From positions 1 through 40,101 of the IMG/VR virus record IMGVR_UViG_2718217868_000001: 40,101 nucleotides of DNA; one strand, written 5' to 3'. Positions 3,890 through 40,101 of this stretch are shown here, piece by piece. Under the pieces are notes generated by a model. The model made no database searches, was not told where the DNA came from, and worked only from the letters and a program-made list of their open reading frames with translations. Source of the DNA: a virus. Lineage: Duplodnaviria; Heunggongvirae; Uroviricota; Caudoviricetes. Positions within the stretch are counted from its first letter, which is position 1. Every line of letters begins with the position of its first letter. The position numbers and the translations under genes are program-made.

Positions 3890-3912
3890 AATTAAATCCT
3901 TATTTTTCTAAA

Positions 3913-4296
3913 TCAGAATGGGATGGAATCGTCGTATACAGGAGTGTTCTGCTGGTTACTACTTTGCTGCTGCGGGCCATTTCCTGAAGCTGCAAATCCA
4001 ATCTTTGCATTCAGTAATTCAAGAGTGATTGATTGACCATTTTGCCCCTGATAAACATCAACCCTGATGTTTTCTCCGGTAATTTCCACAATGCCACCTT
4101 CAACAAGAACACTACGGTAGTAATCCGCTTGCGCTCCCGGCTTGGCAAATACAACGGCGCTGTAGTTTGTCCATTCTTTCTTTTTTGTCTGGCGATCGTA
4201 ATACTGAACGCCAGCACGGATGTTGAATCCGATATTTTCCCCGGTCTGAAACTCTCTTGCGGGCTTGTTTAGTCTTACAGTAATCGAATGTGCCAT
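3913..4296 (-). CDS. Phage single-stranded DNA-binding protein (SSB-like, 127 aa)
   Basis: Acidic C-terminal tail ending DDSIPF, like the SSB DDDIPF tail; lies immediately downstream of erf. Confidence 0.7.
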   Translation of the reverse strand: MAHSITVRLNKPAREFQTGENIGFNIRAGVQYYDRQTKKKEWTNYSAVVFAKPGAQADYYRSVLVEGGIVEITGENIRVDVYQGQNGQSITLELLNAKIGFAASGNGPQQQSSNQQNTPVYDDSIPF

Positions 4297-4901
4297 TAAG
4301 CAGCCGCTCCTTCTAATTCGTCTCGTCTGATGTTGTAAACGTCCTGCGCTTTGTGCTGCTCCGGTGTGCCTTCAAGCATCTTCCACGCTTTGGCGAACGC
4401 CTGTTTAAGCTCTTCTACGGTGTTTTTTTGCATTGCTGCGTCAGTGAATGCTTTTAGAACCTGTTCAGGTGTAGGTGATGGTTTTGATTGCTTTGCTGCT
4501 GCGTTCTGCTGATGTTTATGCTCGTCGGTATCTGCATCTTTCGCATCATCAATGCCGAATAAACCATTGAGGCAATACTTGCGTGCATAAGAGCTTGTAG
4601 CTCCCGTAACTTGTGCAGAATCCATTCCTTTCTTGCTTTCTTCCTCTCGTGCAAGAGCGGTTGCTTTATGGCTGTTTTCGCCATCGGTAATAGTTGCCGT
4701 GGCTTTCACGTAATACCGATCACCAATCAACACAACTTCATCGCTGATTGATAAAAACAGACCATTCAGTAACGGCTTAACGCCTTCAAGAATATCTTCG
4801 CAGCTTCTGTATTTATATTTACCGAATGAGTTGTACTGATTTTTTGGCGCGTTCAGATTCTCCTGAATGGCTGCCAGTCTTGCGTAAAATTCTTTGCTCA
4901 T
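4296..4901 (-). CDS. erf: Erf-family single-strand annealing recombination protein (P22 Erf-like)
   Basis: MSKEFYARLA..NQYNSFGKYKYRSCEDILEGVKPLL closely resembles P22 Erf as I recall it. Start placed at MSKEF (the six-frame ORF extends to 4931). Confidence 0.85.
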   Translation of the reverse strand: MSKEFYARLAAIQENLNAPKNQYNSFGKYKYRSCEDILEGVKPLLNGLFLSISDEVVLIGDRYYVKATATITDGENSHKATALAREEESKKGMDSAQVTGATSSYARKYCLNGLFGIDDAKDADTDEHKHQQNAAAKQSKPSPTPEQVLKAFTDAAMQKNTVEELKQAFAKAWKMLEGTPEQHKAQDVYNIRRDELEGAAA

Positions 4902-5450: not shown

Positions 5451-6419
5451 TTAGTAGGTTATTTTTGTTGCGAATACTTCGCCTTTTACGATGGCTGTTA
5501 TGATATTTTTAGCAACATCTTCTGATGCACCAACCTTGATAAGGTCAGCAAGTATTTTGTTATTTACTTCTTTCCGGTGAGCTTTATCCTTTGCTCTGCG
5601 CTCTTCTTCGTCCTTGATTCTTTTTTCTTCTGCTATTCTGGCTTGCTCTTTTGCTTCAGCATCGCGACGGATTTGTTCAGCCTCCTCCTGTGCTTTTCTG
5701 CGTTCTGCTTCAATTGCTGCCTGCTTTTCTCTTTCAGCTCGTTCTGCTGCCTCTTTTGCTTCGCGCTGTGCTCGTTGCTCGGCTTCAATGCGTTCACGCT
5801 CTGCACGTTCCGCTGCGGCCTTAGCTTCTGCTTCTCGCCTTGCTGCTGCTTCAATTTCGGCTTTTGCCTTTGCTTCGGCTTCTGCTCTGGCTTTCTCTTC
5901 AGCTTCTCTTTTTAAGCGCTCTTCATGCTCTCGCTTTTCCCGCTCCGCTTTGAGTCTTGCCTCTTCTCTTTGGCGGTCAAATTCGCGATCCATCAAAATC
6001 GCTATTTCATGGTCAGACTCAATTTGCTTTGCGAGAGCTTCAGCTGCTGCCTTAGCTTCTTCTTCGGCTTTAATCCGCGCCTGTTCTTCCTCATAATCAG
6101 TAAGAGGCTGGCGTGCCTTGGCTTTCAGCTCATCAAGGCGATCACGCACTGTTTTGCGGTTGGCATCAATTAGCTTTGGAATTTCCTTCAGTTCAGCAAC
6201 AAGGTCTTTGCCAAGACCATCGAGATATGTTTTCGTCTGCGCAACTTTATACGCCAGAGAAGCGATCTCCTTTCTGCCCTTTGCCGTTGTGATATCAGGC
6301 ACAAAGGACATAACTTCACGTTCAACCTTTTGAAGGATTTCTTCAATCTGGTCGGCAGACTGAAATACAGTCATTGCATTTGCTTTTTCAATAACAACTA
6401 AATCTGTTACTTCACTCAT
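5451..6419 (-). CDS. Charged coiled-coil protein with a TolA-like E/K/A/R-rich central region (about 322 aa)
   Basis: Start placed at ATG 6419 with a GGAGGA site (the six-frame ORF extends to 6473). About 170 residues of AEEKA/REAEA low-complexity helical repeat flanked by ordinary N- and C-terminal segments. Confidence 0.6.
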   Translation of the reverse strand: MSEVTDLVVIEKANAMTVFQSADQIEEILQKVEREVMSFVPDITTAKGRKEIASLAYKVAQTKTYLDGLGKDLVAELKEIPKLIDANRKTVRDRLDELKAKARQPLTDYEEEQARIKAEEEAKAAAEALAKQIESDHEIAILMDREFDRQREEARLKAEREKREHEERLKREAEEKARAEAEAKAKAEIEAAARREAEAKAAAERAERERIEAEQRAQREAKEAAERAEREKQAAIEAERRKAQEEAEQIRRDAEAKEQARIAEEKRIKDEEERRAKDKAHRKEVNNKILADLIKVGASEDVAKNIITAIVKGEVFATKITY

Positions 6420-6431
6420 ATATCCTCCATC

Positions 6432-6458
6432 AAAAAAATCGCCCTCACATTGGAGGGC
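6432..6458 (-). terminator. Putative intrinsic terminator (minus strand) downstream of the AT-rich cassette
   Basis: Hairpin gccctc/gagggc followed by seven T on the minus strand. Confidence 0.5.
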
Positions 6459-6551
6459 AAAGAAGATTTCCAATAATCAGAACAAGTCGGCTCCTGTTTA
6501 GTTACGAGCGACATTGCTCACATAGCAGACTCGCAAATCTGCTATAGGTGC

Positions 6552-7723: not shown

Positions 7724-8056
7724 TCAATCGTAATAAGCTGGAATTGATTTTCCGCGTTGCTTCTGGCGGCCTGAGCAAGTCACACCCATTTCACAGCGTG
7801 GCTTGCTGTACCATGTGCGCTGATTCTTGCGCTCAATACGTTGCAGGTTGCTTTCAATCTGTTCGTGGTATTCAGCCAGCACCGTAAGGTCTATCGGATT
7901 CAGTGCGCTTTCTACTCGTGATTTCGGTTTGCGATTCAGCGAGAGAATAGGGCGGTTAACTGGTTTTGCGCTTACCCCAACCAACAGGGGATTTGCTGCT
8001 TTCCATTGAGCCTGTTTCTCTGCGCGACGTTCGCGGCGGCGTGTTTGTGCATTCAT
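7724..8056 (-). CDS. N: Antitermination protein N (lambda N-like, about 110 aa)
   Basis: MNAQTRRRERRAEKQAQWKAANPLLVGVSAKPVNRPILSLNRKPKSRVESALNPIDLTVLAEYH.. is near-identical to lambda N including the arginine-rich motif. Start at 8056 (the six-frame ORF extends to 8146). Confidence 0.9.
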   Translation of the reverse strand: MNAQTRRRERRAEKQAQWKAANPLLVGVSAKPVNRPILSLNRKPKSRVESALNPIDLTVLAEYHEQIESNLQRIERKNQRTWYSKPRCEMGVTCSGRQKQRGKSIPAYYD

Positions 8057-8166
8057 CTGGATTCTCCTGTCAGTTAGCTTTGAGTAACGCGCCGTGATGC
8101 TTATCTCCACGGTTGCTGTCTTGCAGCTGCATTTCGCGCTACTCAAAGCCTTCTGCTTTGAATGCT

Positions 8167-8196
8167 GCCCTTCTTCAGGGCTTAATTTTTAAGAGC
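8167..8196 (-). promoter_or_regulatory. nutL (boxA plus boxB) N-utilisation site
   Basis: The minus strand reads GCTCTTAAAAATTAAGCCCTGAAGAAGGGC, which matches lambda nutL boxA and boxB. Confidence 0.85.
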
Positions 8197-8236
8197 ATCA
8201 CCTTCATGGTGGTTAGTGCGTCCTGCTGATGGCTAA

Positions 8237-8265
8237 ATAGTACGATTTGTACTTTATCGAGTCAA
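8237..8265 (-). promoter_or_regulatory. pL-like early-left promoter with an overlapping operator palindrome
   Basis: Minus strand -35 TTGACT, 17-bp spacer, -10 TACTAT. The palindrome AGTACnnnnnGTACT (8239..8253) lies in the spacer. Confidence 0.6.
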
Positions 8266-8328
8266 TACAAAATGTTCTAAATATAATTGGTTTTTTATAA
8301 CGCTTTGTATTTAATGGGTTTATATTTT

Positions 8329-8360
8329 GGAAAAAGAAAACCCGACACTAAGGTCGGGTT
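8329..8360 (-). terminator. Intrinsic terminator downstream of cI
   Basis: Hairpin acccgac/gtcgggt followed by a TTTTCTTTTT run on the minus strand, directly after the cI stop. Confidence 0.6.
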
Positions 8361-8390
8361 ATTGTTGTGTGCTTTAGAGTGGTGAGGCTG

Positions 8391-9044
8391 TTAACTAAAT
8401 GTCTCTTCAGGCCACTGGCTGGCGATAACTTTCCCTACAACGGAACAGCTATCATTGCATGGGATCATTGGATATTGCGGGTTTAGTGGCTGTAGGAACA
8501 CCTGACCGCTATCCCTGATCAGTTTCTTGAAGGTAAACTCGTCACCACCAAGTCTGGCTATGCAGAAATCACCTGGCTCAACAGCCTGCTCAGGGTCAAC
8601 GAGAATTAACATCCCGTCAGGAAAGCTTGGCTTGGATCCTGTTGGCGCGGTCATGGAATTACCTTCAACTTCAAGCCAGAACGCACAATCACTGGCTTTT
8701 TTGGTTGTGCTGACCCATCTCTCCGCATCACCTTTGGTAAAGGTTCTAAGCTCAGGCGAGAACATCCCGGCCTGAACATGAGAAAAAACAGGGTACTCAT
8801 ATTGTTTTTTAACGGGGGCAGATGAGTATTCGCCAACAGGTGAAAATGTACCGTCGTGGTTGAATGAGACGTTATCAATACCAAGGTATTTAAACACCAC
8901 ACCAATCTCGTCAAGAGATGGATGACGAGATCCGCGCAACCAGTGACCAATTCCACCCTGCGTCATACCAAGCTCTTCAGCTAACTTCTCTTGAGTTATG
9001 CCGAGCTCTTTCATTCTGGATCTAGCCAGTTCATACCATTTCAT
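8391..9044 (-). CDS. cI: CI-type prophage repressor with a lambda-like C-terminal S24 autoprotease domain and a heterologous N-terminal HTH domain
   Basis: The C-terminal ~135 aa (..[36 protein letters not shown]..) is nearly identical to lambda cI; the N-terminal ~80 aa is an unrelated XRE-type HTH. Start at 9044 or 9050 (the six-frame ORF extends to 9092). Confidence 0.85.
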
Positions 9045-9106
9045 TTTCATACCCTTATTATTACGCTCTGTACTAAAATCATCCATGCACAAGATGTATT
9101 TTTTGT

Positions 9107-9135
9107 TTGCATTCTAAAAGTACATATCGTATTAT
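9107..9135 (+). promoter_or_regulatory. PR-like rightward early promoter
   Basis: -35 TTGCAT, 17-bp spacer, -10 TATTAT, about 25 bp upstream of cro; inverted GTAC half-sites nearby. Confidence 0.55.
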
Positions 9136-9161
9136 TGTTTCATGGTTACTATGGAGGGCAT

Positions 9162-9377
9162 ATGAGCAACCTACGAAAATATCGAGAGTCACTGAATATC
9201 TCTCAAACAACACTTGCTAAGGCAGTTGGATGCACACAGGGAGCTATCGGACATTGGGAATCTGGTCGTCGCTTCCCAGACCTTAAAACATGCCGTGCTC
9301 TTGTTGAGTGCCTAAACAAGTTAGGCGCAAAAGTCAGTCTTGATGACGTGTTCCCGCCGGAACACAAAGTCGCTTAA
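9162..9377 (+). CDS. cro: Cro-like HTH repressor (71 aa)
   Basis: GGAGGG site then ATG; XRE-type HTH with a TQGAIGHWESG helix similar to the cI N-terminal domain; divergent from cI. Confidence 0.8.
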   Translation: MSNLRKYRESLNISQTTLAKAVGCTQGAIGHWESGRRFPDLKTCRALVECLNKLGAKVSLDDVFPPEHKVA

Positions 9378-9386
9378 GACATTCTA

Positions 9387-9417
9387 GCTCTTACACATCA
9401 CAGCCCTGAAAAAGGGC
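9387..9417 (+). promoter_or_regulatory. nutR (boxA plus boxB)
   Basis: GCTCTTACA followed by GCCCTGAAAAAGGGC, matching lambda nutR; the tR1-like region follows. Confidence 0.85.
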
Positions 9418-9496
9418 ATCAAATTAAACCACACCTATGGTGTATGCATTTATTTGCATACATTCAATCAATTGTTATCTAAGGAAATACTTACAT

Positions 9497-9775
9497 ATGC
9501 AACTTACAAGTACTCGCAAGAAAGCGAATGCAATTACAAGCAACATCCTGAATCGAATTGCTGTACGTGGCCAGCGAAAGGTTGCTGATGCATTAGGGAT
9601 CAATGAATCGCAAATTTCGCGATGGAAAGACAGCTTCATCCCAAAAATGGGAATGCTTCTGGCTGTTCTTGAATGGGGTGTTGAAGACGAGGAGTTGGCG
9701 GAACTGGCTAAGAAAGTAGCCAGAATGCTGACAAAAGAAAAAGCCCCGAAGAACGGCGAATTCTTCGAGGCCTAA
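9497..9775 (+). CDS. cII: CII transcriptional activator (lambda CII-like, 92 aa)
   Basis: ..GINESQISRWKDSFIPKMGMLLAVLEWGVEDEELAELAKKVA.. closely matches lambda CII; AAGGAAA site; start at 9497 within the six-frame ORF 9437..9775. Confidence 0.85.
   Translation: MQLTSTRKKANAITSNILNRIAVRGQRKVADALGINESQISRWKDSFIPKMGMLLAVLEWGVEDEELAELAKKVARMLTKEKAPKNGEFFEA
9731..9770 (-). terminator. Minus-strand intrinsic terminator inside the cII 3' end (oop-like antisense RNA terminator)
   Basis: The minus strand forms a 10-bp stem CCUCGAAGAA/UUCUUCGGGG followed by a U-rich tract; the position is analogous to the lambda oop RNA terminator. Confidence 0.45.
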
Positions 9776-9809
9776 TGTAGAAAGACTGGATCAATCCACG
9801 GGAGTAATT

Positions 9810-9971
9810 ATGACAAAACGTCGTAAGAAATACCAGGAAAAAGAAGAGATTCGACACCCTGATTCACCTGAGGGATTAGTGGTAGCCGCAGCAAATAACA
9901 GGGCGTTCGCAGAGCGCCTTGTTGGTGTTTACAGACTAGCCAAAGCAGGAGTGAAACATGGGCGTCGTTAA
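9810..9971 (+). CDS. Hypothetical small basic protein (53 aa) between cII and the replication gene
   Basis: GGAG site then ATG at 9810; overlaps the start of the O-like gene. Could instead be non-coding (oop promoter region). Confidence 0.3.
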   Translation: MTKRRKKYQEKEEIRHPDSPEGLVVAAANNRAFAERLVGVYRLAKAGVKHGRR

Positions 9972-33960: not shown

Positions 33961-33986
33961 GACCCACCTTCAGGTGGGTTTTTTGT
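33961..33986 (+). terminator. Intrinsic terminator between the convergent lipoprotein gene and mnt
   Basis: Hairpin cccacc/ggtggg followed by TTTTTT; overlaps the mnt stop codon. Confidence 0.7.
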
Positions 33987-34221
33987 ACAAATCCTTCAGC
34001 GTATCAAACACCATCTTCTTAACAAGCTCTGACTGCTCATCAGCGAGTCGTTCTGCATCGTCGCGATATCCAGTCACAGGCGATGGTTTTGATAGAGCAT
34101 CTTGGACGATTTGTAACAACTCGGAGTTCATTGATCTCCCATTCGCCTCCGCCCTGAATTTTAATTTCTCCCTTACTTCCATAGGCATACGGAAGTTAAA
34201 GTGCGGATCATCTCTAGCCAT
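33970..34221 (-). CDS. mnt: Mnt repressor (P22 immI)
   Basis: 83 aa, MARDDPHFNFRMPMEVREKLKFRAEANGRSMNSELLQIVQDAL.., matches P22 Mnt. Confidence 0.95.
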   Translation of the reverse strand: MARDDPHFNFRMPMEVREKLKFRAEANGRSMNSELLQIVQDALSKPSPVTGYRDDAERLADEQSELVKKMVFDTLKDLYKKPT

Positions 34222-34243
34222 GCCATCACTCCAAGTTAGTGTA

Positions 34244-34295
34244 TTGACATGATAGAAGCACTCTACTATATTCTCAATAGGTCCACGGTGGACCT
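34244..34295. promoter_or_regulatory. Divergent Pant/Pmnt control region with the Arc and Mnt operators
   Basis: -35 TTGACA (34244..34249); Oarc ATGATAGAAGCACTCTACTAT (34249..34269); Omnt AGGTCCACGGTGGACCT (34279..34295), as in P22. Confidence 0.9.
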
Positions 34296-34311
34296 ATATT
34301 GTGAGGTGAAT

Positions 34312-34473
34312 ATGAAAGGAATGAGCAAGATGCCGCAGTTCAATTTGCGGTGGCCTAAAGAAGTATTGGATTTGGTACGCAAGGTGGCGGAAGAGAATGG
34401 TCGGTCTGTTAACTCTGAGATTTATCAGAGAGTAATGGAAAGCTTTAAGAAGGAAGGGCGCATTGGCGCGTAA
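34312..34473 (+). CDS. arc: Arc repressor (P22 immI)
   Basis: 53 aa, MKGMSKMPQFNLRWPKEVLDLVRKVAEENGRSVNSEIYQRVMESFKKEGRIGA, matches P22 Arc; start at 34312 within the six-frame ORF 34249..34473. Confidence 0.95.
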   Translation: MKGMSKMPQFNLRWPKEVLDLVRKVAEENGRSVNSEIYQRVMESFKKEGRIGA

Positions 34474-34541
34474 AGTTGAAGCCCCAACTGCGGGAACAGT
34501 CAGGGCTTCGGTATCAACAAATCGTCTTAGGAAATATTGAC
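34474..34541 (-). ncRNA. Putative sar-like antisense RNA covering the ant ribosome-binding site and start
   Basis: Minus-strand promoter (-35 TTGATA at 34571..34576, 17-bp spacer, -10 TATACT at 34548..34553) and an imperfect hairpin in the arc-ant spacer; P22 has a ~68-nt sar RNA here. Ends are estimates. Confidence 0.45.
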
Positions 34542-35465
34542 ATGAAAAGTATAGCAACAGCAGTATCTACTATCAATGTACCATTCCACGGCGCAGAGCT
34601 TTATGTTGTCAATCACAACGGCGAACCGTATACCCCAATGAAACCTATCGTTGAGGGAATGGGGCTAGACTGGAAATCTCAGCATAAGAAGATTTCTCAA
34701 CGCTTCTCGAAGGGTATGGTGGAAATCACCATACCTTCTGCCGGTGGGGTGCAAGCCATGATTTGTATGGCTTTACGAAAATTGGCAGCTTGGTTGAACA
34801 GCATCAGTCCTAACAAAGTCCGCCCTGAAATCCGCGACAAGGTAATCCAGTATCAGGAAGAGTGTGACGATGTGCTCTATGACTACTGGACTAAAGGCCA
34901 TGTAGTTAACCCACGAAAAGCTAAAAAGGCGTTGCCGGGTAAAATCACCACTGAACAGCAGGAAGCCATTAAACAACTCGTCATGAGTCGCGGTCAGTCT
35001 CTGCCAAAGGAAAAACAGGCTAAGGCGATGATCACCATGTGGTCGTCACTGAAATCCCATTTTGGATGTTCGTACAAAGAAATCAGTGAGGAGCAGTTTA
35101 CCGAAGCACTGTCACTTGCAGCTCGAGTTCCACTTGAAGGCGAGTTCATTGGCAAACAAGAGAAGAAAGCAAACGAGCTTTCTGCAAAAGAAGCAAACAG
35201 CCTTGTATGGCTATGGGATTATGCTAACCGTTCACAGGCATTATTCCGCGAACTGTATCCGGCATTAAAACAAATTCAATCGAACTATTCCGGCAGATGC
35301 TACGACTACGGTCATGAATTCTCGTATGTTATCGGAATGGCGAGAGACGTTTTAATCAATCACACACGAGATGTTGATATTAATGAGCCAGACGGACCAA
35401 CGAATCTTTCCGCATGGATGAGACTTAAGAATAAAGAATTACCTCCTTCAGTACATAACTACTGA
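34542..35465 (+). CDS. ant: Antirepressor Ant
   Basis: AGGAAA site; position after arc as in P22; 307 aa; start at 34542 within the six-frame ORF 34476..35465. Confidence 0.75.
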   Translation: MKSIATAVSTINVPFHGAELYVVNHNGEPYTPMKPIVEGMGLDWKSQHKKISQRFSKGMVEITIPSAGGVQAMICMALRKLAAWLNSISPNKVRPEIRDKVIQYQEECDDVLYDYWTKGHVVNPRKAKKALPGKITTEQQEAIKQLVMSRGQSLPKEKQAKAMITMWSSLKSHFGCSYKEISEEQFTEALSLAARVPLEGEFIGKQEKKANELSAKEANSLVWLWDYANRSQALFRELYPALKQIQSNYSGRCYDYGHEFSYVIGMARDVLINHTRDVDINEPDGPTNLSAWMRLKNKELPPSVHNY

Positions 35466-35565: not shown

Positions 35566-37413
35566 ATGACAGACATTACAGCCAATGTGATTGTATCGAT
35601 GCCTTCGCAACTCTTCACTATGGCGCGTTCTTTTAAAGCCGTAGCCAATGGCAAAATTTATATCGGTAAAATTGACACTGACCCGGTAAATCCTGAAAAC
35701 CAGATTCAGGTTTATGTAGAGAACGAAGACGGATCTCACATTCCTGTTTCGCAACCAATCATTATCAATTCTGCTGGTTACCCTGTATATAACGGACAGA
35801 TTGCCAAATTCGTAACTGTGCAAGGCCATTCTATGGCTGTTTATGATGCGTATGGTGCACAGCAGTTCTATTTTCCGAATGTGCTGAAGTATGATCCTGA
35901 TCAGCTTGAAAAAAGGTTATCAAGCCCATCCGAAGGAATGGGAGATTCTCTAATTGCTGTTAAACAACCTTTTCCGAGAGCGGTTCCACAGACTCAACAT
36001 TTGTTTAATGCAATGACCTTTTCTGTTTTCAGTTGGGGAGCTAAAGCTGATGGCGTCAATGATGACACAACAGCAATTAAAAACTGTCTTCAAGACCTAA
36101 AGAGTTCATATCCATCTGGATGTAATGTATTTCTTCCAGCAGGAGAGTATAGAATTAGTGAAACTATTATTATCCCTGATAGAATTAATTTGTTCGGATG
36201 TGGAAACGGAACTCATATACGGCCAATAGGAGATATTTTAAGTAATAGTAATGCTTATATTATATGTTTTGATTATGGCCCTACAACAGCAGGTGCATTT
36301 ATTCGTGACATAACCATTACTGGAAACGATATAGTGAAGGGGATAGGAACTACCTTAAAAAAAAGCGATACAGTAATAAGGCAAGTTTACGCTCTTAATT
36401 TTGACTGCGTCACGGTACAAAATTGTTCAATAGGTTTTGAAATGCAAGGCTGGTGGCACAGCTCAATGACAAACTGCCGAGCTAGTGGGTGTAATATTGG
36501 TCTTAGATTGCTTGGTCAGTGTGTTAGTATACATATATCAGGATGTAAATTCACAGGAAAGGGGTTGTCTCAACCATCGTCTATAGGAATAGATATTGCA
36601 CCAGAAACTTACTCATGGTCTGGTGGTGAAGTGATAAGCGAGGGGATAATTATTGATGGTGAGACAATGTGTATCTCAAATAACGTTGGGATATGGGTAA
36701 AAGGTAGCCTTTATATGCATCTTTCGAATGTCGATATTGATTTCGTAGGGTCAACTGGGATAATTCTTGAAAATAACAATTCTGTTTTTTCTGTAAGAGA
36801 TTGCTGGATTGCCGCACAAGGTGACAGCATTAATCAGTTTGTTGGAATAGACTTTAGATCTCAGACGCCTTCAGTTCTTCGTAATATAGAAGGAGTGGAA
36901 ATTAGGTGTGAAAACAATAACCCTATCAATAACAATATAGGTATATCTTTAAACAATGTCAGTAATGTTAATGTTTTGGGAGTAAATATAATTGGTGGTG
37001 ATAAATCAATTTATTCAAAAACATCAAGAAATATTAATATCAATGGATGTATGTTTGCTAGTGATTTGTTGTTTGATGATATTGACGGTCTCTCATTGAA
37101 CGGTAATTACATAACATCACTTACCTTATTAAACTCACCAAAAGATAGAAACAATAACTTTGGGGTTAATAACAATAAATTAACTAGAGGAAAGGTAACT
37201 GTACCTATGTCACCCGGAGCTACATCAGGAACTGCAGACATCCCAAACCCAATTTCTGGCGTCATATATTCTGCCAGCGTAATTCCAACTGATGCTGCAA
37301 ACTCAATGGACACTGTTTCAGTTTCAGGAACAACAATAACAATATCAAGACCAACACCTGTTGGTGTTTCCTTACCAACACTTGTTGAATACTATTTAAT
37401 ATCATCATTATAA
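35566..37413 (+). CDS. Tailspike protein: P22 gp9-like N-terminal head-binding domain fused to a different beta-helix receptor-binding domain
   Basis: N-terminal ~115 aa [58 protein letters not shown].. matches the P22 tailspike head-binding domain; the rest is an unrelated pectate-lyase-like region (..[25 protein letters not shown]..). Confidence 0.9.
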
Positions 37414-37442
37414 TCAGCCTGCCAATATTTTATTACACAATC

Positions 37443-37478
37443 AAAAGGCTTTCCTTGCCGACGAAGAAAAGCCTTTTG
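37443..37478. terminator. Bidirectional hairpin between the convergent tailspike and integrase genes
   Basis: About 10-bp stem aaaaggcttt/aaagcctttt with T-rich flanks on both strands. Confidence 0.5.
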
Positions 37479-37699
37479 TAGTATAATTTATGATTTCATA
37501 CGTTTATGGTGGGTTAATGTTTTTTTATCAACCAAGGAAGTTACATCACAAGAAATAAAAATATCTATTAAAAGATACTTTTCATGATAACGATGATATT
37601 TAAATTGAATGAATTATGTTTTGTGAGAAAAAACTGAGACACACAAAGCTTTGCACTGGATTGCAAGGCTTTGCGCTATTCGATAAGGGTTAAGGTGGG

Positions 37700-38893
37700 T
37701 CACTCCACCTTTTCATCAAGCCAGTCCGCCCACCACTGCATCATTTCTCTGCGCTTGTCGAGATACTGAGCATGGTTGTAAATCCCGCGCACAGATCCGC
37801 CGTTGGCATGTGCAAGTTGCACTTCAATAGCATCAGCAGGCCATTCGTGCTCGTTCATAATCGTGCTGAATTCATGCCTGAATCCGTGACCGCTTTCCAG
37901 ACCCTCATAGCCGATTTGTTTGATCACAAGCAATACCGCGTTCTCGCAGATTGGCTTCTTCTTATCGTTGCGCCCGGCAAAAACAAACTCTGATACTGGT
38001 TTAGTGATGGAGCTTAGCGTAGTGAGAAGTTCAACTACCTGGTCCGACATCGGAACCACATGAATTTTGCGTCCCTTCATCACACTGGCGTCGATGGTGA
38101 TAATCCTGTTTTCAAAATCGACGTTCTTCCATAGCATGGAACGAAGCTCTTTTGTTCTGAGGGCTGTGTAGCGTAAAGCTTTGGTCGCAATGAGCGATAC
38201 GATACTTCCTGAAAATGTTGCCAGTGCTTTGTTGAATGCCGGGATCTGGTCTGCAGGAAGAAACGGGAAGTTCTTCTTGCGGTATCCCTTCATGGCGTCA
38301 GCAAGGTCAGGTGCCGGGTTATATTTAGCCCTTCCGGTGACAATAGCGTAACGGAAAACCTCTCCGCATCTTCTGCGGGCTTTGTTGGCTCGCTCAATTG
38401 CACCGCGATCTTCAAATCTGCGGATTACTTCCAGCAGTTGCATCGGCTCAATATCCTGAATTTCAAGGCTGCCGATGATAGGTAAAATGTCGTCATCAAA
38501 CATTTTGGCAAGTTCAGTTGCATAGCCTACTGACCAGACTTGCTTCTTGTGCTCGTACCATTCCTTGTAAATGGCACTAAAGGAATTGTTGTTAGACGAA
38601 GCCTTTTTCGCTTTTACCGGATCGATGCCAACCGAGATGTCTTTCCTCGCGGTCCATGCTTTATCCCTTGCCTCCTGCAAAGTCATAAGCGGATATTTTC
38701 CGACGGTCAGGATTTTCTCCTTACCGTCAATCTTGTAGCGAAGCTGCCATACCTTTTTCCCTGATACAGGGACATAAAGGTACAGGCCATTACCATCGAG
38801 TAGGCGGTATGGTTTTTCTTTCGGCTTTGCTGCTTCAATCTGCTTAACGGTGAGCATGGGTAAAAATCCGGTGGGTAAAATTATTTTATCCAC
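37700..38893 (-). CDS. intS: Tyrosine integrase (KplE1/CPS-53 IntS-type)
   Basis: 397 aa; C-terminal catalytic motifs HGFRHEF and ..VRGIYNHAQY; adjacent to and transcribed away from the tRNA-Arg gene. Confidence 0.9.
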   Translation of the reverse strand: MDKIILPTGFLPMLTVKQIEAAKPKEKPYRLLDGNGLYLYVPVSGKKVWQLRYKIDGKEKILTVGKYPLMTLQEARDKAWTARKDISVGIDPVKAKKASSNNNSFSAIYKEWYEHKKQVWSVGYATELAKMFDDDILPIIGSLEIQDIEPMQLLEVIRRFEDRGAIERANKARRRCGEVFRYAIVTGRAKYNPAPDLADAMKGYRKKNFPFLPADQIPAFNKALATFSGSIVSLIATKALRYTALRTKELRSMLWKNVDFENRIITIDASVMKGRKIHVVPMSDQVVELLTTLSSITKPVSEFVFAGRNDKKKPICENAVLLVIKQIGYEGLESGHGFRHEFSTIMNEHEWPADAIEVQLAHANGGSVRGIYNHAQYLDKRREMMQWWADWLDEKVE

Positions 38894-39032
38894 TTTTTAC
38901 CCGTCATGGAGTGCGGCTGTCAACGATCTGACGCGAACCATTACGAACTGTGAATCTACGGAAGGCTTGATATTCAGGGGATTTTGCGGACTGGTACGGA
39001 TGAGAGCGAACTGATAAATGGTGTCCCCTGCA
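38894..39032. promoter_or_regulatory. Prophage-host junction (att region with probable integrase promoter and arm sites) overlapping the tRNA 3' end
   Basis: Position between int and the tRNA; exact core and crossover are not determinable from one junction. Confidence 0.5.
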
Positions 39033-39093
39033 GGAATCGAACCTGCAATTAGCCCTTAGGAGGGGCTCGTTATATCCATTTAACTAAGAGGAC
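39019..39093 (-). tRNA. argW: tRNA-Arg (anticodon CCU), argW-type
   Basis: 75-nt minus-strand sequence GTCCTCTTAGTTAAATGGATATAACGAGCCCCTCCTAAGGGCTAATTGCAGGTTCGATTCCTGCAGGGGACACCA with a cloverleaf and CCU anticodon. Confidence 0.9.
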
Positions 39094-39168
39094 AATGCGG
39101 CATGAGTATACCCGCTAATGGAGTGCGGGGTAAGTACGCTGCCGCTCGATTGCTTAAACCCTCGCCAT

Positions 39169-40101
39169 TTATGCCGGGTTTTTATAATTTTTCTTAATGT
39201 TTTCCGCACGTTCTGCTTTTTGGCGTGCTTCTGCTTTACGCTTATTGCTCATGTCGTTACGAATCTGTGCATGACTCATTAACGCGAAGATAAAGGTGCC
39301 GCCGCAGATGTTCCCCGCTAAAGTAGGTAGTGCGAAGGGCCAGATGAAATCGCTCCAGTGCAGCGTACCGTTAAACACCAGATAGAGGATTTCAACAGAA
39401 CCGACCACGATATGGGTGGTGTCACCCAGGGCAATAAGCCAGGTCATCAATATAATCACCACAATCTTTGCCGCACCCGCTGCAGGAAACATCCAAACCA
39501 TAGTGGCGATCAGCCAGCCGGAAATGATCGCGTTGGCAAACATCTCGCTGGGGGTGTTCTTCATCACATCCATGCCGATTTTGACAAATGCATCGCGAGT
39601 TTCTTCATTGAAGATAGGCATATATTCAAATGCCCACGCCGCAATACCTGTCCCGAGAATATTACCCAGCAGCACGACGCCCCATAACCGTATAAGTAAG
39701 CCGACGTTGCTCATTGTCGGTTTTTGCATGACGGGTAGTACCGCAGTCACGGTATTTTCGGTAAATAATTGCTGGCGGGCCATAATGACGATAATAAAAC
39801 CAAAGGTATAACCGAGATTCTCCAGCAAGAAGCTGCCCGGCACACCTTCCAGTTCGACATGAAATATCCCTTTTGCCAGTAACGAAGCGCCCATCGACAG
39901 ACCCGCCGCAATGGCTGACCACAGTAGCGCCATTGCGTCGCGTTCCAGCTCTTTTTCACCATCCTGGCGGATATGCTCATGAATTGCCATCGCCCGGGAG
40001 GGGAGTCGGTCTTCATCTATTTCTATTTTTTTGCCGCGCTCTTTTTCTTCGCTCTCAACTTCAATTTCGTCGCTGTGTTGATCAATTTTGTCGTTGTCCA
40101 T
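39169..40101 (-). CDS. yfdC: Inner-membrane transporter of the formate/nitrite transporter family (YfdC-like), host gene
   Basis: 310 aa starting MDNDKIDQHSDE.. with multiple transmembrane helices; sits beside argW as in E. coli. Confidence 0.8.
   Translation of the reverse strand: MDNDKIDQHSDEIEVESEEKERGKKIEIDEDRLPSRAMAIHEHIRQDGEKELERDAMALLWSAIAAGLSMGASLLAKGIFHVELEGVPGSFLLENLGYTFGFIIVIMARQQLFTENTVTAVLPVMQKPTMSNVGLLIRLWGVVLLGNILGTGIAAWAFEYMPIFNEETRDAFVKIGMDVMKNTPSEMFANAIISGWLIATMVWMFPAAGAAKIVVIILMTWLIALGDTTHIVVGSVEILYLVFNGTLHWSDFIWPFALPTLAGNICGGTFIFALMSHAQIRNDMSNKRKAEARQKAERAENIKKNYKNPA

Follow-up and report, generated by a model that had tools for sequence, protein, structure and literature searches.

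The closest described relatives of our locus are the immunity regions of Shiga-toxin phages. The CI repressor of VT2-Sakai combines a lambda-like C-terminal domain (CTD) with an N-terminal domain (NTD) unlike that of lambda, as described by Fattah et al. 2000 and recounted in passages of PMC10742460 and PMC4587872. The same passages report three OL and three OR sites. Cross-immunity between VT2-Sakai and lambda was reported earlier (Fattah 2000, as mentioned in a passage of PMC10742460). The operator sequences of VT2-Sakai are absent from the main text of PMC10742460 and PMC9803871, and the paper of the Koudelka laboratory (PMC5977221) concerns another repressor, BAA2326.

Here we analyse the immunity region of a stretch of 40,101 nucleotides, which we call the window. 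At the DNA level, positions 8391-9377 are one known cI-OR-cro cassette, aligned end to end. The cassette is collinear with, and 93% identical to, the corresponding DNA of AP005153, AP005154, AJ413274, FM180578, the PA phages and NC_000902. Protein identity to the Stx1-converting phage, Stx2 II, VT2-Sakai, Nil2 and 2851 is 97%. The cassette is 99% identical in Dewey, Louie and vB_EcoP-720R6/683R2, and 100% identical in a prophage of E. coli H6 (NZ_CP010170).

The preliminary description of this DNA had taken the region for a recombinant immunity specificity. Relative to lambda the region is indeed a mosaic, but the specificity is not new: all of 8391-9377 matches a single known type, VT2-Sakai/Stx1/Nil2. 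The cI recognition helix, the Cro type and the three OL and three OR operators all place it there. It does not belong to imm-lambda, from which it differs in the NTD and in the operators (lambda's are of the TATCACCGCCAGTGGTA type), and it has no rexA-rexB co-transcribed with cI. The immunity type is already known and has long been recorded from Shiga-toxin phages such as VT2-Sakai.

With a probability of about 0.9 the region is an ordinary repressor/Cro/operator switch (immC: pL/OL, terminator, cI, PRM/OR/PR, cro). Judged from sequence, the element that hosts it is very probably a P22-like E. coli prophage integrated at argW, with an immunity region of the VT2-Sakai/Stx1-converting-phage/Nil2 type. 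As a discovery this has little significance. It is textbook lambdoid modular mosaicism, a Shiga-toxin-phage immunity cassette flanked by lambda N/nut modules in a phage of the P22 kind. There are two by-products: a map of operators, promoters and terminator for a repressor type that is very common in E. coli prophages, and exact limits for the cargo slot that lies between the cI stop and a conserved terminator, at the position of rexAB.

The cassette is widespread. Of 5426 complete E. coli genomes, 776 (about 1 in 7) hold at least 80% of 8391-9377. About 430 further complete genomes match only the CTD part of cI. The full cassette, with the same junction inside cI, is also carried by dozens of phages, roughly 60, whose sequences have been deposited from about 2000 onward. 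Many E. coli hold a second repressor with a lambda CTD.

The Shiga-toxin phages compared here are VT2-Sakai (NC_000902), the Stx1-converting phage and Stx2 II of O157:H7 Morioka V526 (AP005153/AP005154), Nil2 (AJ413274) and 2851 (FM180578). They share with the window the gene order, six operators that correspond in half-sites and in location, and the same lambda-type CTD. They differ in three respects. Between cI and OL they have additional ORFs, about 1.5 kb in all, in the slot that is empty in the window. Their N is HK97-like, whereas the window has lambda N and lambda nut sites. And the window encodes a P22-like podovirus, unlike the Shiga-toxin phages. A closer group consists of Dewey and Louie (Lederbergvirus; PMC12243541), vB_EcoP-720R6, 683R2 and the H6 prophage, which are 99-100% identical to the window across pL, cI, cro and nutR. 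As in the window, the slot after cI is empty and the genome is of the P22-like type. Differences in this group lie outside the immunity region, in the replication genes and the tailspike, and Dewey has an HNH gene after cII.

Lambda (J02459, 35.5-38.3 kb) shares with the window the cI linker and CTD, including the Ala-Gly site and the Ser/Lys dyad, and the terminator behind the cI operon. Both have three operators on each side, with OR1, OR3 and OL1 over promoters. N, nutL and nutR are shared as well, and the module boundaries lie at the pL start and before nutR. In contrast, the NTD of the window is only weakly related to that of lambda and has no N-terminal arm, the Cro proteins are of different families (HTH_3 in the window), and operator half-sites read TAnTAC where lambda has TATCAC.

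A third set of relatives is found in the P22-like Salmonella phages SPN9CC, g341c and epsilon34. Their cI is a full-length homologue (219 aa; 70% identical in SPN9CC) that pairs the same type of NTD with a lambda-type CTD, and their Cro is 42% identical. Their NTD is about 55% identical, and its recognition stretch (TKGAVSHWLNG) differs from that of the window. Hence their immunity specificity is presumably different.

The cI gene lies on the minus strand at 8391..9050 and encodes 219 aa plus the stop codon (8391-8393), with Pfam matches to HTH_3 and Peptidase_S24. The open reading frame called by the program ends at 8391 and extends to 9092, and it offers candidate starts at 9050, 9044 and 9086. 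The ATG at 9050 is the likely start, giving a protein that begins MKMKWYE, because the longer annotated starts would overlie OR3 and PRM and because SPN9CC cI aligns from residue 1. The NTD with its helix-turn-helix (HTH) covers aa 1-83; the linker and the lambda-type S24 CTD cover aa 84-219.

The near identity of the cI C-terminal region to lambda, which the preliminary description had pointed out, is borne out: aa 84-219 are about 98% identical to lambda cI, with about 3 positions differing. The corresponding DNA (8397-8801 against lambda 37233-37637) is 94.3% identical. The Pfam match of the peptidase domain has an E value of 9e-29, and the CTD matches the lambda structures 3bdn and 8gmu with E values of 1e-96 and 1e-89. 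Residues A94-G95, S132 and K175 align with A111-G112, S149 and K192, which in lambda cI form the cleavage site and the catalytic dyad. By this alignment the protein has the sequence features of a LexA/S24-type self-cleaving phage repressor, namely an Ala-Gly site and a Ser/Lys dyad.

Identity to lambda falls sharply at 8801/8802, in the linker-coding part of cI. A forced DNA alignment of NTD, OR and cro to lambda gives 43-48% identity; at the DNA level these parts are unrelated to lambda. A non-lambda HTH, cro and operators, as initially described, are indeed what we find. Against lambda NTD structures, cI reaches E values of only 7e-4 to 5e-3. The NTD is 96.4% identical to the VT2-Sakai/Stx1/Nil2 type, and a stretch of 30 aa that spans the recognition helix is identical. 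Over its full length cI is 97% identical to the CI of the Stx1 phage and 100% identical to that of Dewey.

Cro is encoded on the plus strand at 9162..9377 (71 aa; Pfam HTH_3, E 1e-12). It is of the all-helical HTH_3 type and lies outside the lambda Cro fold family. Identity is 97% to Stx1-phage Cro, with an identical HTH stretch, and 99% to Dewey. Its recognition stretch, TQGAIGHW, resembles the TQGGIGHW of cI.

Operators of one shared type can be mapped in both intergenic regions, as the preliminary description had proposed. We built a weight matrix only from the operators annotated in AP005153 and scanned the whole 40-kb window with it. The six best matches in the window all fall within the two intergenic regions, and each is the homologue of an AP005153 operator. 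They are 17 bp long, have the form tA(g/t)TAC-N5-GTA(c/t)Tn and are unlike the operators of lambda. The GTAC-containing palindromes reported before stand only in part: the full GTAC occurs in only some half-sites, and the invariant core is TAC/GTA.

On the left, OL1 (8238..8254, TAGTACGATTTGTACTT) has the best score of all (20.5 bits), OL2 (8263..8279, CAATACAAAATGTTCTA) the third best (16.4 bits) and OL3 (8296..8312, TATAACGCTTTGTATTT) the fifth best (14.9 bits). On the right, OR3 (9059..9075, TATTACGCTCTGTACTA) ranks fourth (15.0 bits), and OR1 (9118..9134, AAGTACATATCGTATTA) ranks second (18.3 bits). OR2 (9085..9101, ATGCACAAGATGTATTT) is the weakest site, ranking sixth with 11.1 bits, a score within the range of sixth-best matches in shuffled sequence. 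The centres of OR1 and OR2 are 33 bp apart, compared to 24 bp in lambda, and those of OR2 and OR3 are 26 bp apart.

For operators, only the clustering and the fuller weight matrix are informative; the bare pattern is insufficient. TACN5GTA is not enriched in the window: it occurs 7 times where 3.4 matches are expected, and 10 of 100 shuffled sequences contain at least as many. An inverted-repeat search of both intergenic regions returned trivial 6-mers only, the operators being imperfect palindromes.

The promoters fit this layout. A promoter scan places pL on the minus strand at 8237..8265 (TTGACT, a 17-nt spacer, TACTAT), and OL1 overlaps its spacer and -10. PR lies on the plus strand at 9106..9135 according to the promoter scan and the motif positions, with TTGCAT (9107-9112), a 17-nt spacer and TATTAT (9130-9135); OR1 overlaps its spacer and -10. 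A putative PRM can be read from the sequence on the minus strand at 9057..9085, with a weak -35 (TGGATG, 9085-9080), a 17-nt spacer and the -10 AATAAT (9062-9057). OR3 overlaps this -10 and OR2 abuts the -35. AP005153 bears a comparable annotation, 'putative maintenance promoter'.

The cassette sits between lambda modules. To the left, the N gene lies on the minus strand at 7724..8056 and encodes 110 aa from the ATG at 8056 (Pfam N36, E 2e-25). The protein is 92% identical to lambda N, its arginine-rich N terminus is identical apart from D2N, and the DNA (7800-8082) is 98.6% identical. The site nutL follows at 8167..8197 on the minus strand. Its boxB (8167-8181, GCCCTGAAGAAGGGC) is that of lambda nutL, and its boxA-like tGCTCTTA (8190-8197) differs from lambda at the first base only. 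From nutL to the pL start (8144-8231) identity to lambda is 97.7%. Homology to lambda starts at the predicted start of the pL transcript, near 8231; this is where the window begins to align with ATCAGCAGGACGCAC, which opens the pL transcript of lambda.

To the right, homology to lambda resumes at 9387. The site nutR is found on the plus strand at 9386..9417, with the boxA-like aGCTCTTA (9386-9393), which again differs at its first base, and a boxB identical to that of lambda (GCCCTGAAAAAGGGC, 9403-9417). From nutR to the cII start (9387-9499 against lambda 38250-38362) identity is 98.2%. The parts of lambda-type N antitermination, an N with an arginine-rich motif and nut sites downstream of pL and PR, are thus all recognizable from homology. 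N, nutL and nutR had rightly been called lambda-like. For cII the same word was too strong: the gene at 9497..9775 on the plus strand (92 aa) belongs to the Phage_CII family (Pfam PF05269, E 2e-42), but its product is only 53% identical to lambda cII by BLASTP. Inside the 5' end of cII, a pattern search finds a candidate cII-binding site of PRE on the minus strand, TTGC-N6-TTGC at 9530..9543. The window holds six matches to this pattern against 3.9 expected, and the position of this one alone makes it suggestive.

If these parts work as their homology and geometry suggest, the switch would operate as follows. Dimers of cI would bind the six 17-bp operators via the Xre-type HTH domain, and cI at OL1 and OR1 would block pL and PR. 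The lambda-type CTD would provide dimerisation and cooperativity. RecA-stimulated self-cleavage at Ala94-Gly95 via the Ser132/Lys175 dyad would lead to SOS induction. Cro, itself of the HTH_3 type and almost the same as cI in its recognition stretch, would bind the same sites and drive the lytic direction.

For PRM the argument is purely geometric. Transcription is predicted to start at or beside the cI ATG at 9050, from which we infer that the weak PRM probably makes a leaderless cI mRNA, as in lambda. OR2-bound cI would sit at about -43 of this promoter, a geometry that suggests activation by cI; the positive-control surface of lambda lies in the NTD and is not conserved here. OR3 over the PRM -10 would allow autoregulation. 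Lambda-style pairwise cooperativity at OR1-OR2 is assumed despite the wider spacing; it is conceivable, if rather improbable, that the extra helical turn rewires the cooperative operator pairs with the same CTD. The whole module sits between lambda-type N/nutL and nutR at the classical limits of an immunity region, with the start of the pL transcript as its left boundary and boxA of nutR as its right boundary.

Behind cI, a terminator scan predicts an intrinsic terminator on the minus strand at 8339..8360, about 30 nt past the cI stop. It consists of an 8-bp stem followed by TTCTTTTT. Positions 8333-8368 are 86% identical to lambda 35799-35834, and the one stem pair that differs from lambda does so in a compensatory manner (GAC/GTC instead of GGC/GCC). 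By homology the terminator is the counterpart of the lambda terminator after rexB (t_imm).

It is correct, as first noticed, that cI runs into this terminator and then pL without rexA or rexB. There is no ORF of at least 40 aa between the cI stop and terminator/pL, and a tblastn search of the window with RexA and RexB of lambda gave chance matches only (E above 2). A hidden rex-like gene is rejected on both counts. Rex is also absent from all same-cassette relatives looked at.

The rex position, from the cI stop to the terminator, is a variable cargo slot, which is empty here. In phi458 this very interval, from the cI stop to the terminator that both share, holds an insert of 1087 bp, Orf11. 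Elsewhere the slot holds an NYN-domain protein (2B8), b63 (the Stx1 phage) or rexAB (lambda). The slot genes of the relatives are unrelated, mostly uncharacterised and presumably expressed in lysogens, which makes them candidates for a role in phage defence or lysogenic conversion.

One could explain the absence of rexAB, and that alone, by a deletion from an ancestor with a rexAB-bearing, lambda-like immunity region. Since the 3' end of cI is lambda-like and the terminator 30 nt behind it is homologous to the one that follows rexB in lambda, the two sequences that border rexAB in lambda both occur here, 28 nt apart. Yet these 28 nt are not lambda-like, the same-cassette relatives hold unrelated genes in this place (Orf11, the NYN-domain protein, b63), and rex-free relatives fit an exchange between conserved flanks equally well. 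We consider such a deletion doubtful. Alternatively, the slot may never have been filled, or it may have been emptied by cassette exchange.

A more remote idea is that the window carries a functionally distinct allele of the same family, heteroimmune to the Shiga-toxin-phage allele through the 7% DNA divergence, which includes changes in the operators and the NTD. OR shares only 84.5% identity with its counterpart in the Stx1 phage, and OL about 79%, with differences mostly in operator centres and inter-site spacers. All six operators differ from their Shiga-toxin-phage counterparts at one to three positions, and three residues of the NTD differ (D60S, E61D, V74I). However, these residues lie after the HTH, and the HTH stretches of cI (24 aa) and Cro are identical in both alleles. 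Furthermore, the operator changes mostly fall in the central N5 and the outermost position, with a single half-site change at OL3, and the TAC/GTA cores are kept. Heteroimmunity is thus highly improbable. Small differences in operator affinity from the Shiga-toxin phages are possible given the divergence of OR.

That a new specificity was made in this very phage, by fusing a lambda cI CTD to a DNA-binding domain, cro and operators of other origin, would suit the sharp drop in identity within the cI linker and the flanks that are 98% identical to lambda, but it is scarcely tenable, because the same junction and cassette occur in the dozens of phages and 776 complete E. coli genomes mentioned above, because in CTD DNA the window and the Stx1 phage stand about equally close to lambda (93.7% and 92.9% identity), and because a Salmonella phage has the 70%-identical full-length homologue.

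Compared in pairs, the CTD DNAs of lambda, the Stx1 phage and the window all lie at about the same distance from one another (92-94% identity). We reject the idea that the CTD came recently from lambda along with the flanks: the flanks are 98% identical to lambda and the CTD about 94%, which argues that they did not arrive together. The full-length homologue in SPN9CC shows that the domain pairing is old and not a fresh chimera. The known-cassette reading places the origin of the lambda-like CTD in an old recombination within the linker-coding part of cI, common to the whole cassette family and not made in this phage.

The same prophage carries a P22-type immI antirepressor (Ant, 34539-35465). 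Together with the near-lambda CTD, this makes it conceivable, if rather improbable, that cI assembles into mixed oligomers with the lambda-type repressors that other prophages in the same cell produce, or is a target of the phage's own Ant. If either were true, the induction or immunity of heteroimmune prophages would be coupled via the shared CTD.

A few minor observations complete the picture. A 101-aa ORF that overlaps cI at 8651-8956 ('ORF b65' in AP005153) finds no support as a real gene, and RefSeq does not annotate it. Rfam has no family in the immunity region; a sar RNA and a tRNA are matched elsewhere in the window. In RefSeq, the cI-type repressor is labelled only 'LexA family protein'.

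The region at 8391-9377 holds two divergent genes: a cI-type repressor with HTH_3 and Peptidase_S24 domains (minus strand, ORF ending at 8391) and, in the position of cro, a plus-strand gene for a 71-aa HTH_3 protein (9162-9377). To the left of this cassette lies a lambda-type N gene (7724-8056); its product shares 92% identity with lambda N and has a match to Pfam N36. A gene of the Phage_CII family (9497-9775) follows on the right. We read the cassette as a standard lambdoid switch, in identity and in general mechanism, and put the probability of this reading at about 0.9.

Pairwise BLASTN against lambda (J02459) gives sharply bounded blocks: N (7800-8082, 98.6% identity), nutL as far as the 5' end of the pL transcript (8144-8231, 97.7%), the terminator found after rexB in lambda (8333-8368, 86%), the linker and C-terminal domain of cI (8397-8801, 94.3%), and nutR to the cII start codon (9387-9499, 98.2%). 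The rest of 8232-9386 is unrelated to lambda, with 43-48% identity in a forced alignment. Over residues 84-219 the cI protein shows about three differences from lambda cI. Its cleavage site (Ala-Gly) and its S24 catalytic residues line up with those of lambda cI, and the repressor would be cleaved in the SOS response. Both boxB hairpins are those of lambda, and in nutL and nutR alike the first base of boxA differs from lambda. These comparisons confirm the preliminary description in calling the cI C-terminal region, N, nutL and nutR lambda-like and the helix-turn-helix domain, cro and operators different. The cII gene, also described as lambda-like, is not close, being 53% identical to lambda cII. 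The N-terminal domain of cI (residues 1-83) matches lambda N-terminal domain structures weakly (E 7e-4 to 5e-3), and we found no convincing match to those of P22 C2 and 434 (E around 0.3). Cro, along its entire length, matches PDB 28tn chain A (82 aa) at E 4e-16, far better than it matches P22 C2 or 434 repressor; the entry is labelled 'lambda repressor-like protein', nothing more. A 101-aa ORF in another frame inside cI (8651-8956, minus) is called 'ORF b65' in AP005153, is absent from the RefSeq annotation and is probably no gene. In phage 434, Hex overlaps the repressor gene (PMC3564112).

As a novel type, the recombinant immunity specificity first proposed does not survive a database search: from end to end the region aligns with one immunity type that is already known. 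When 8150-9500 was compared by megablast with 50,697 phage records, Dewey, Louie, vB_EcoP-720R6 and vB_EcoP-683R2 matched over the full length at 98.7-99.0%. A second, large set of hits, from Stx phages, covers exactly 8391-9377 at 93-94%, among them the Stx1-converting phage and Stx2 II (both O157:H7 Morioka V526), Nil2, 2851, HUN/2013 and the PA series, together with the lambdoid phage 2B8. VT2-Sakai (NC_000902) carries the same block at 92.8%. The cI and Cro proteins are each 97% identical to those of the Stx1 phage, and their helix-turn-helix stretches are the same. The N-terminal domain occurs at 95% identity or more in 63 phage records. Among 5426 complete E. coli genomes, 1207 have a match and 776 contain 80% or more of the cassette. 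In strain H6 the copy is 100% identical and sits in a prophage among the same neighbours as in the window.

The cassette is thus already known; its description was right and the claim of novelty wrong. In GenBank AP005153, cI bears the annotation 'similar to phage lambda CI', and OL and OR, the operator groups at pL and PR, are marked with three operators each. According to Fattah et al. 2000, as cited in passages of PMC10742460 and PMC4587872, VT2-Sakai CI has a lambda-like C-terminal domain and an N-terminal domain unlike lambda, and the phage has OL1-3 and OR1-3. PMC4587872 identifies its PST1-1 phages, PA4 among them, with the Sakai Stx2a prophage, which ties the PA-series matches to VT2-Sakai. 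Nil2 cI was in use for comparative analyses by 2010 at the latest (PMC2903704). In the VT2-Sakai record an in-frame stop falls inside the cI helix-turn-helix (GMT*GG; L007, our VT2-Sakai locus, 3901-4596), so that cI is annotated as two fragments. The stop may reflect an error of sequencing, or the cI of that prophage may be truly defective.

The cI gene is a chimera relative to lambda only. DNA of the C-terminal domain is roughly equidistant in the three pairings (window and Stx1 phage 92.0%, window and lambda 93.7%, Stx1 phage and lambda 92.9%), whereas the N and nut flanks are 98% identical to lambda. Hence the C-terminal domain belongs to the cassette and arrived apart from the flanks. From end to end, the 219-aa cI of Salmonella phage SPN9CC has 70% identity (N-terminal domain about 55%, C-terminal domain about 80%; Cro 42%), so this combination of domains is an old full-length repressor family. 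Identity to lambda steps sharply at 8801/8802, a point within the linker and a little upstream of the cleavage site. This step shows that a past recombination in cI put different N-terminal domains on a common C-terminal domain. Lambda itself may be the recombinant.

Mapping the AP005153 operators places OL1 at 8238-8254, OL2 at 8263-8279, OL3 at 8296-8312, OR3 at 9059-9075, OR2 at 9085-9101 and OR1 at 9118-9134. A symmetrised weight matrix, made from the AP005153 sites alone and run on the whole window, ranks these six as its top positions (20.5 to 11.1 bits), the seventh-best scoring 10.2 bits. The score of OR2 by itself falls inside the shuffled-sequence range; the operator signal is clustering plus homology. 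In the consensus of the 12 half-sites, tA(g/t)TAC(a/g), the AC is invariant. The 'GTAC-containing palindromes' reported earlier are real as palindromes, with the full GTAC in only some half-sites. Changes relative to the Stx-phage operators mostly affect the central five bases or the outermost position of a site, and one lies inside a half-site, at OL3. OL1 extends over the spacer and -10 of pL, and OR1 over those of PR, as in lambda. Centres are 25 and 33 bp apart in OL, and 33 bp (OR1-OR2) and 26 bp (OR2-OR3) apart in OR; OR1-OR2 is about one turn longer than the 24 bp of lambda. Repressor would occupy these sites cooperatively.

A weak PRM, the promoter of cI, is plausible from sequence on the minus strand (-10 AATAAT at 9062-9057, 17 nt, -35 TGGATG at 9085-9080). 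Its start is predicted at or beside the ATG at 9050, so that the cI mRNA would be leaderless, like that of lambda. The centre of OR2 would then lie near -43 and OR3 over the -10, and repressor would activate the promoter. Because of this putative PRM we place the cI start at 9050 (MKMKWYE), not at the longer annotated start. Between the window and VT2-Sakai, 3 of the 12 extra residues of the longer form differ, compared with 3 of 83 in the N-terminal domain, and the Salmonella homologue lines up with cI from residue 1.

That cI runs into a terminator and pL with no rexA or rexB holds up. Beyond the cI stop codon (8391-8393) come an intrinsic terminator (8339-8360, minus; 8-bp stem and T-run) and pL (8265-8237; TTGACT, 17 nt, TACTAT). 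Only four ORFs, of 20-39 aa each, overlap the interval past the stop, and the best E over the whole 40 kb was 2.4 when lambda RexA and RexB were the tblastn queries. Lambda 35835-37232, with rexA and rexB, is replaced by 28 unrelated nucleotides. Between the terminator stem and that of lambda the difference is one compensatory pair, an argument for a functional terminator.

The missing rexAB is the empty state of a polymorphic slot, since relatives with the same cassette carry unrelated genes there. Lambda has rexAB in this place. In phi458 the cassette is present at 98%, and an insert of 1087 bp (1013-2099 of L005, its locus) fills precisely the interval bounded by the cI stop and the common terminator; the insert encodes Orf11 (348 aa), which had no match in Pfam or PADLOC. 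Downstream of cI, 2B8 has a 285-aa NYN-domain protein (1510-2367 of its locus, L006) and the Stx1 phage has ORF b63 (173 aa; 1478-1999 of its locus, L001) and others. Orf11, the NYN-domain protein and b63 are candidates for cargo or defence functions expressed in lysogens. The window, Dewey and the H6 prophage share the empty slot.

The window is a complete P22-like prophage, with portal, terminase, scaffold and tailspike genes of P22 type. It also has a second immunity region of P22 type, immI (33970-35465), with mnt (33970-34221, minus), arc (34312-34473, plus), sar antisense RNA (34474-34540, minus) and the antirepressor gene ant (34539-35465, plus). Immunity is therefore bipartite, as in P22, and Ant would act on a repressor with a lambda-type C-terminal domain. 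This bipartite arrangement was missing from the preliminary description.

The right prophage end (37700-40101) contains a tyrosine integrase (37700-38893, minus), beside it tRNA-Arg(CCT) (argW; 39019-39093, minus), and past the tRNA a 310-aa ORF, presumably a host gene, that runs off the window. In H6 the opposite end of this prophage adjoins a torI-like gene and dsdC, the insertion site of the K-12 KplE1 element as well.

An oop-like antisense unit lies at 9741-9819, its terminator (9741-9773, minus) overlapping the cII 3' end. PMC3349717 quotes a conserved oop promoter and 5' sequence, and its counterpart here is 9785-9819, a segment with 97% identity to the Stx1 phage. A 53-aa ORF (9810-9971) follows cII and precedes the replication gene, in a position like that of orf48 in HK022. 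In the early-left operon, a 340-aa ORF (5451-6473, minus) has a long central region, very rich in Glu, Ala, Lys and Arg, with a likeness to a coiled coil or to TolA. The H6 prophage annotation calls this ORF 'hypothetical', and one mEp213 record calls it 'TolA'.
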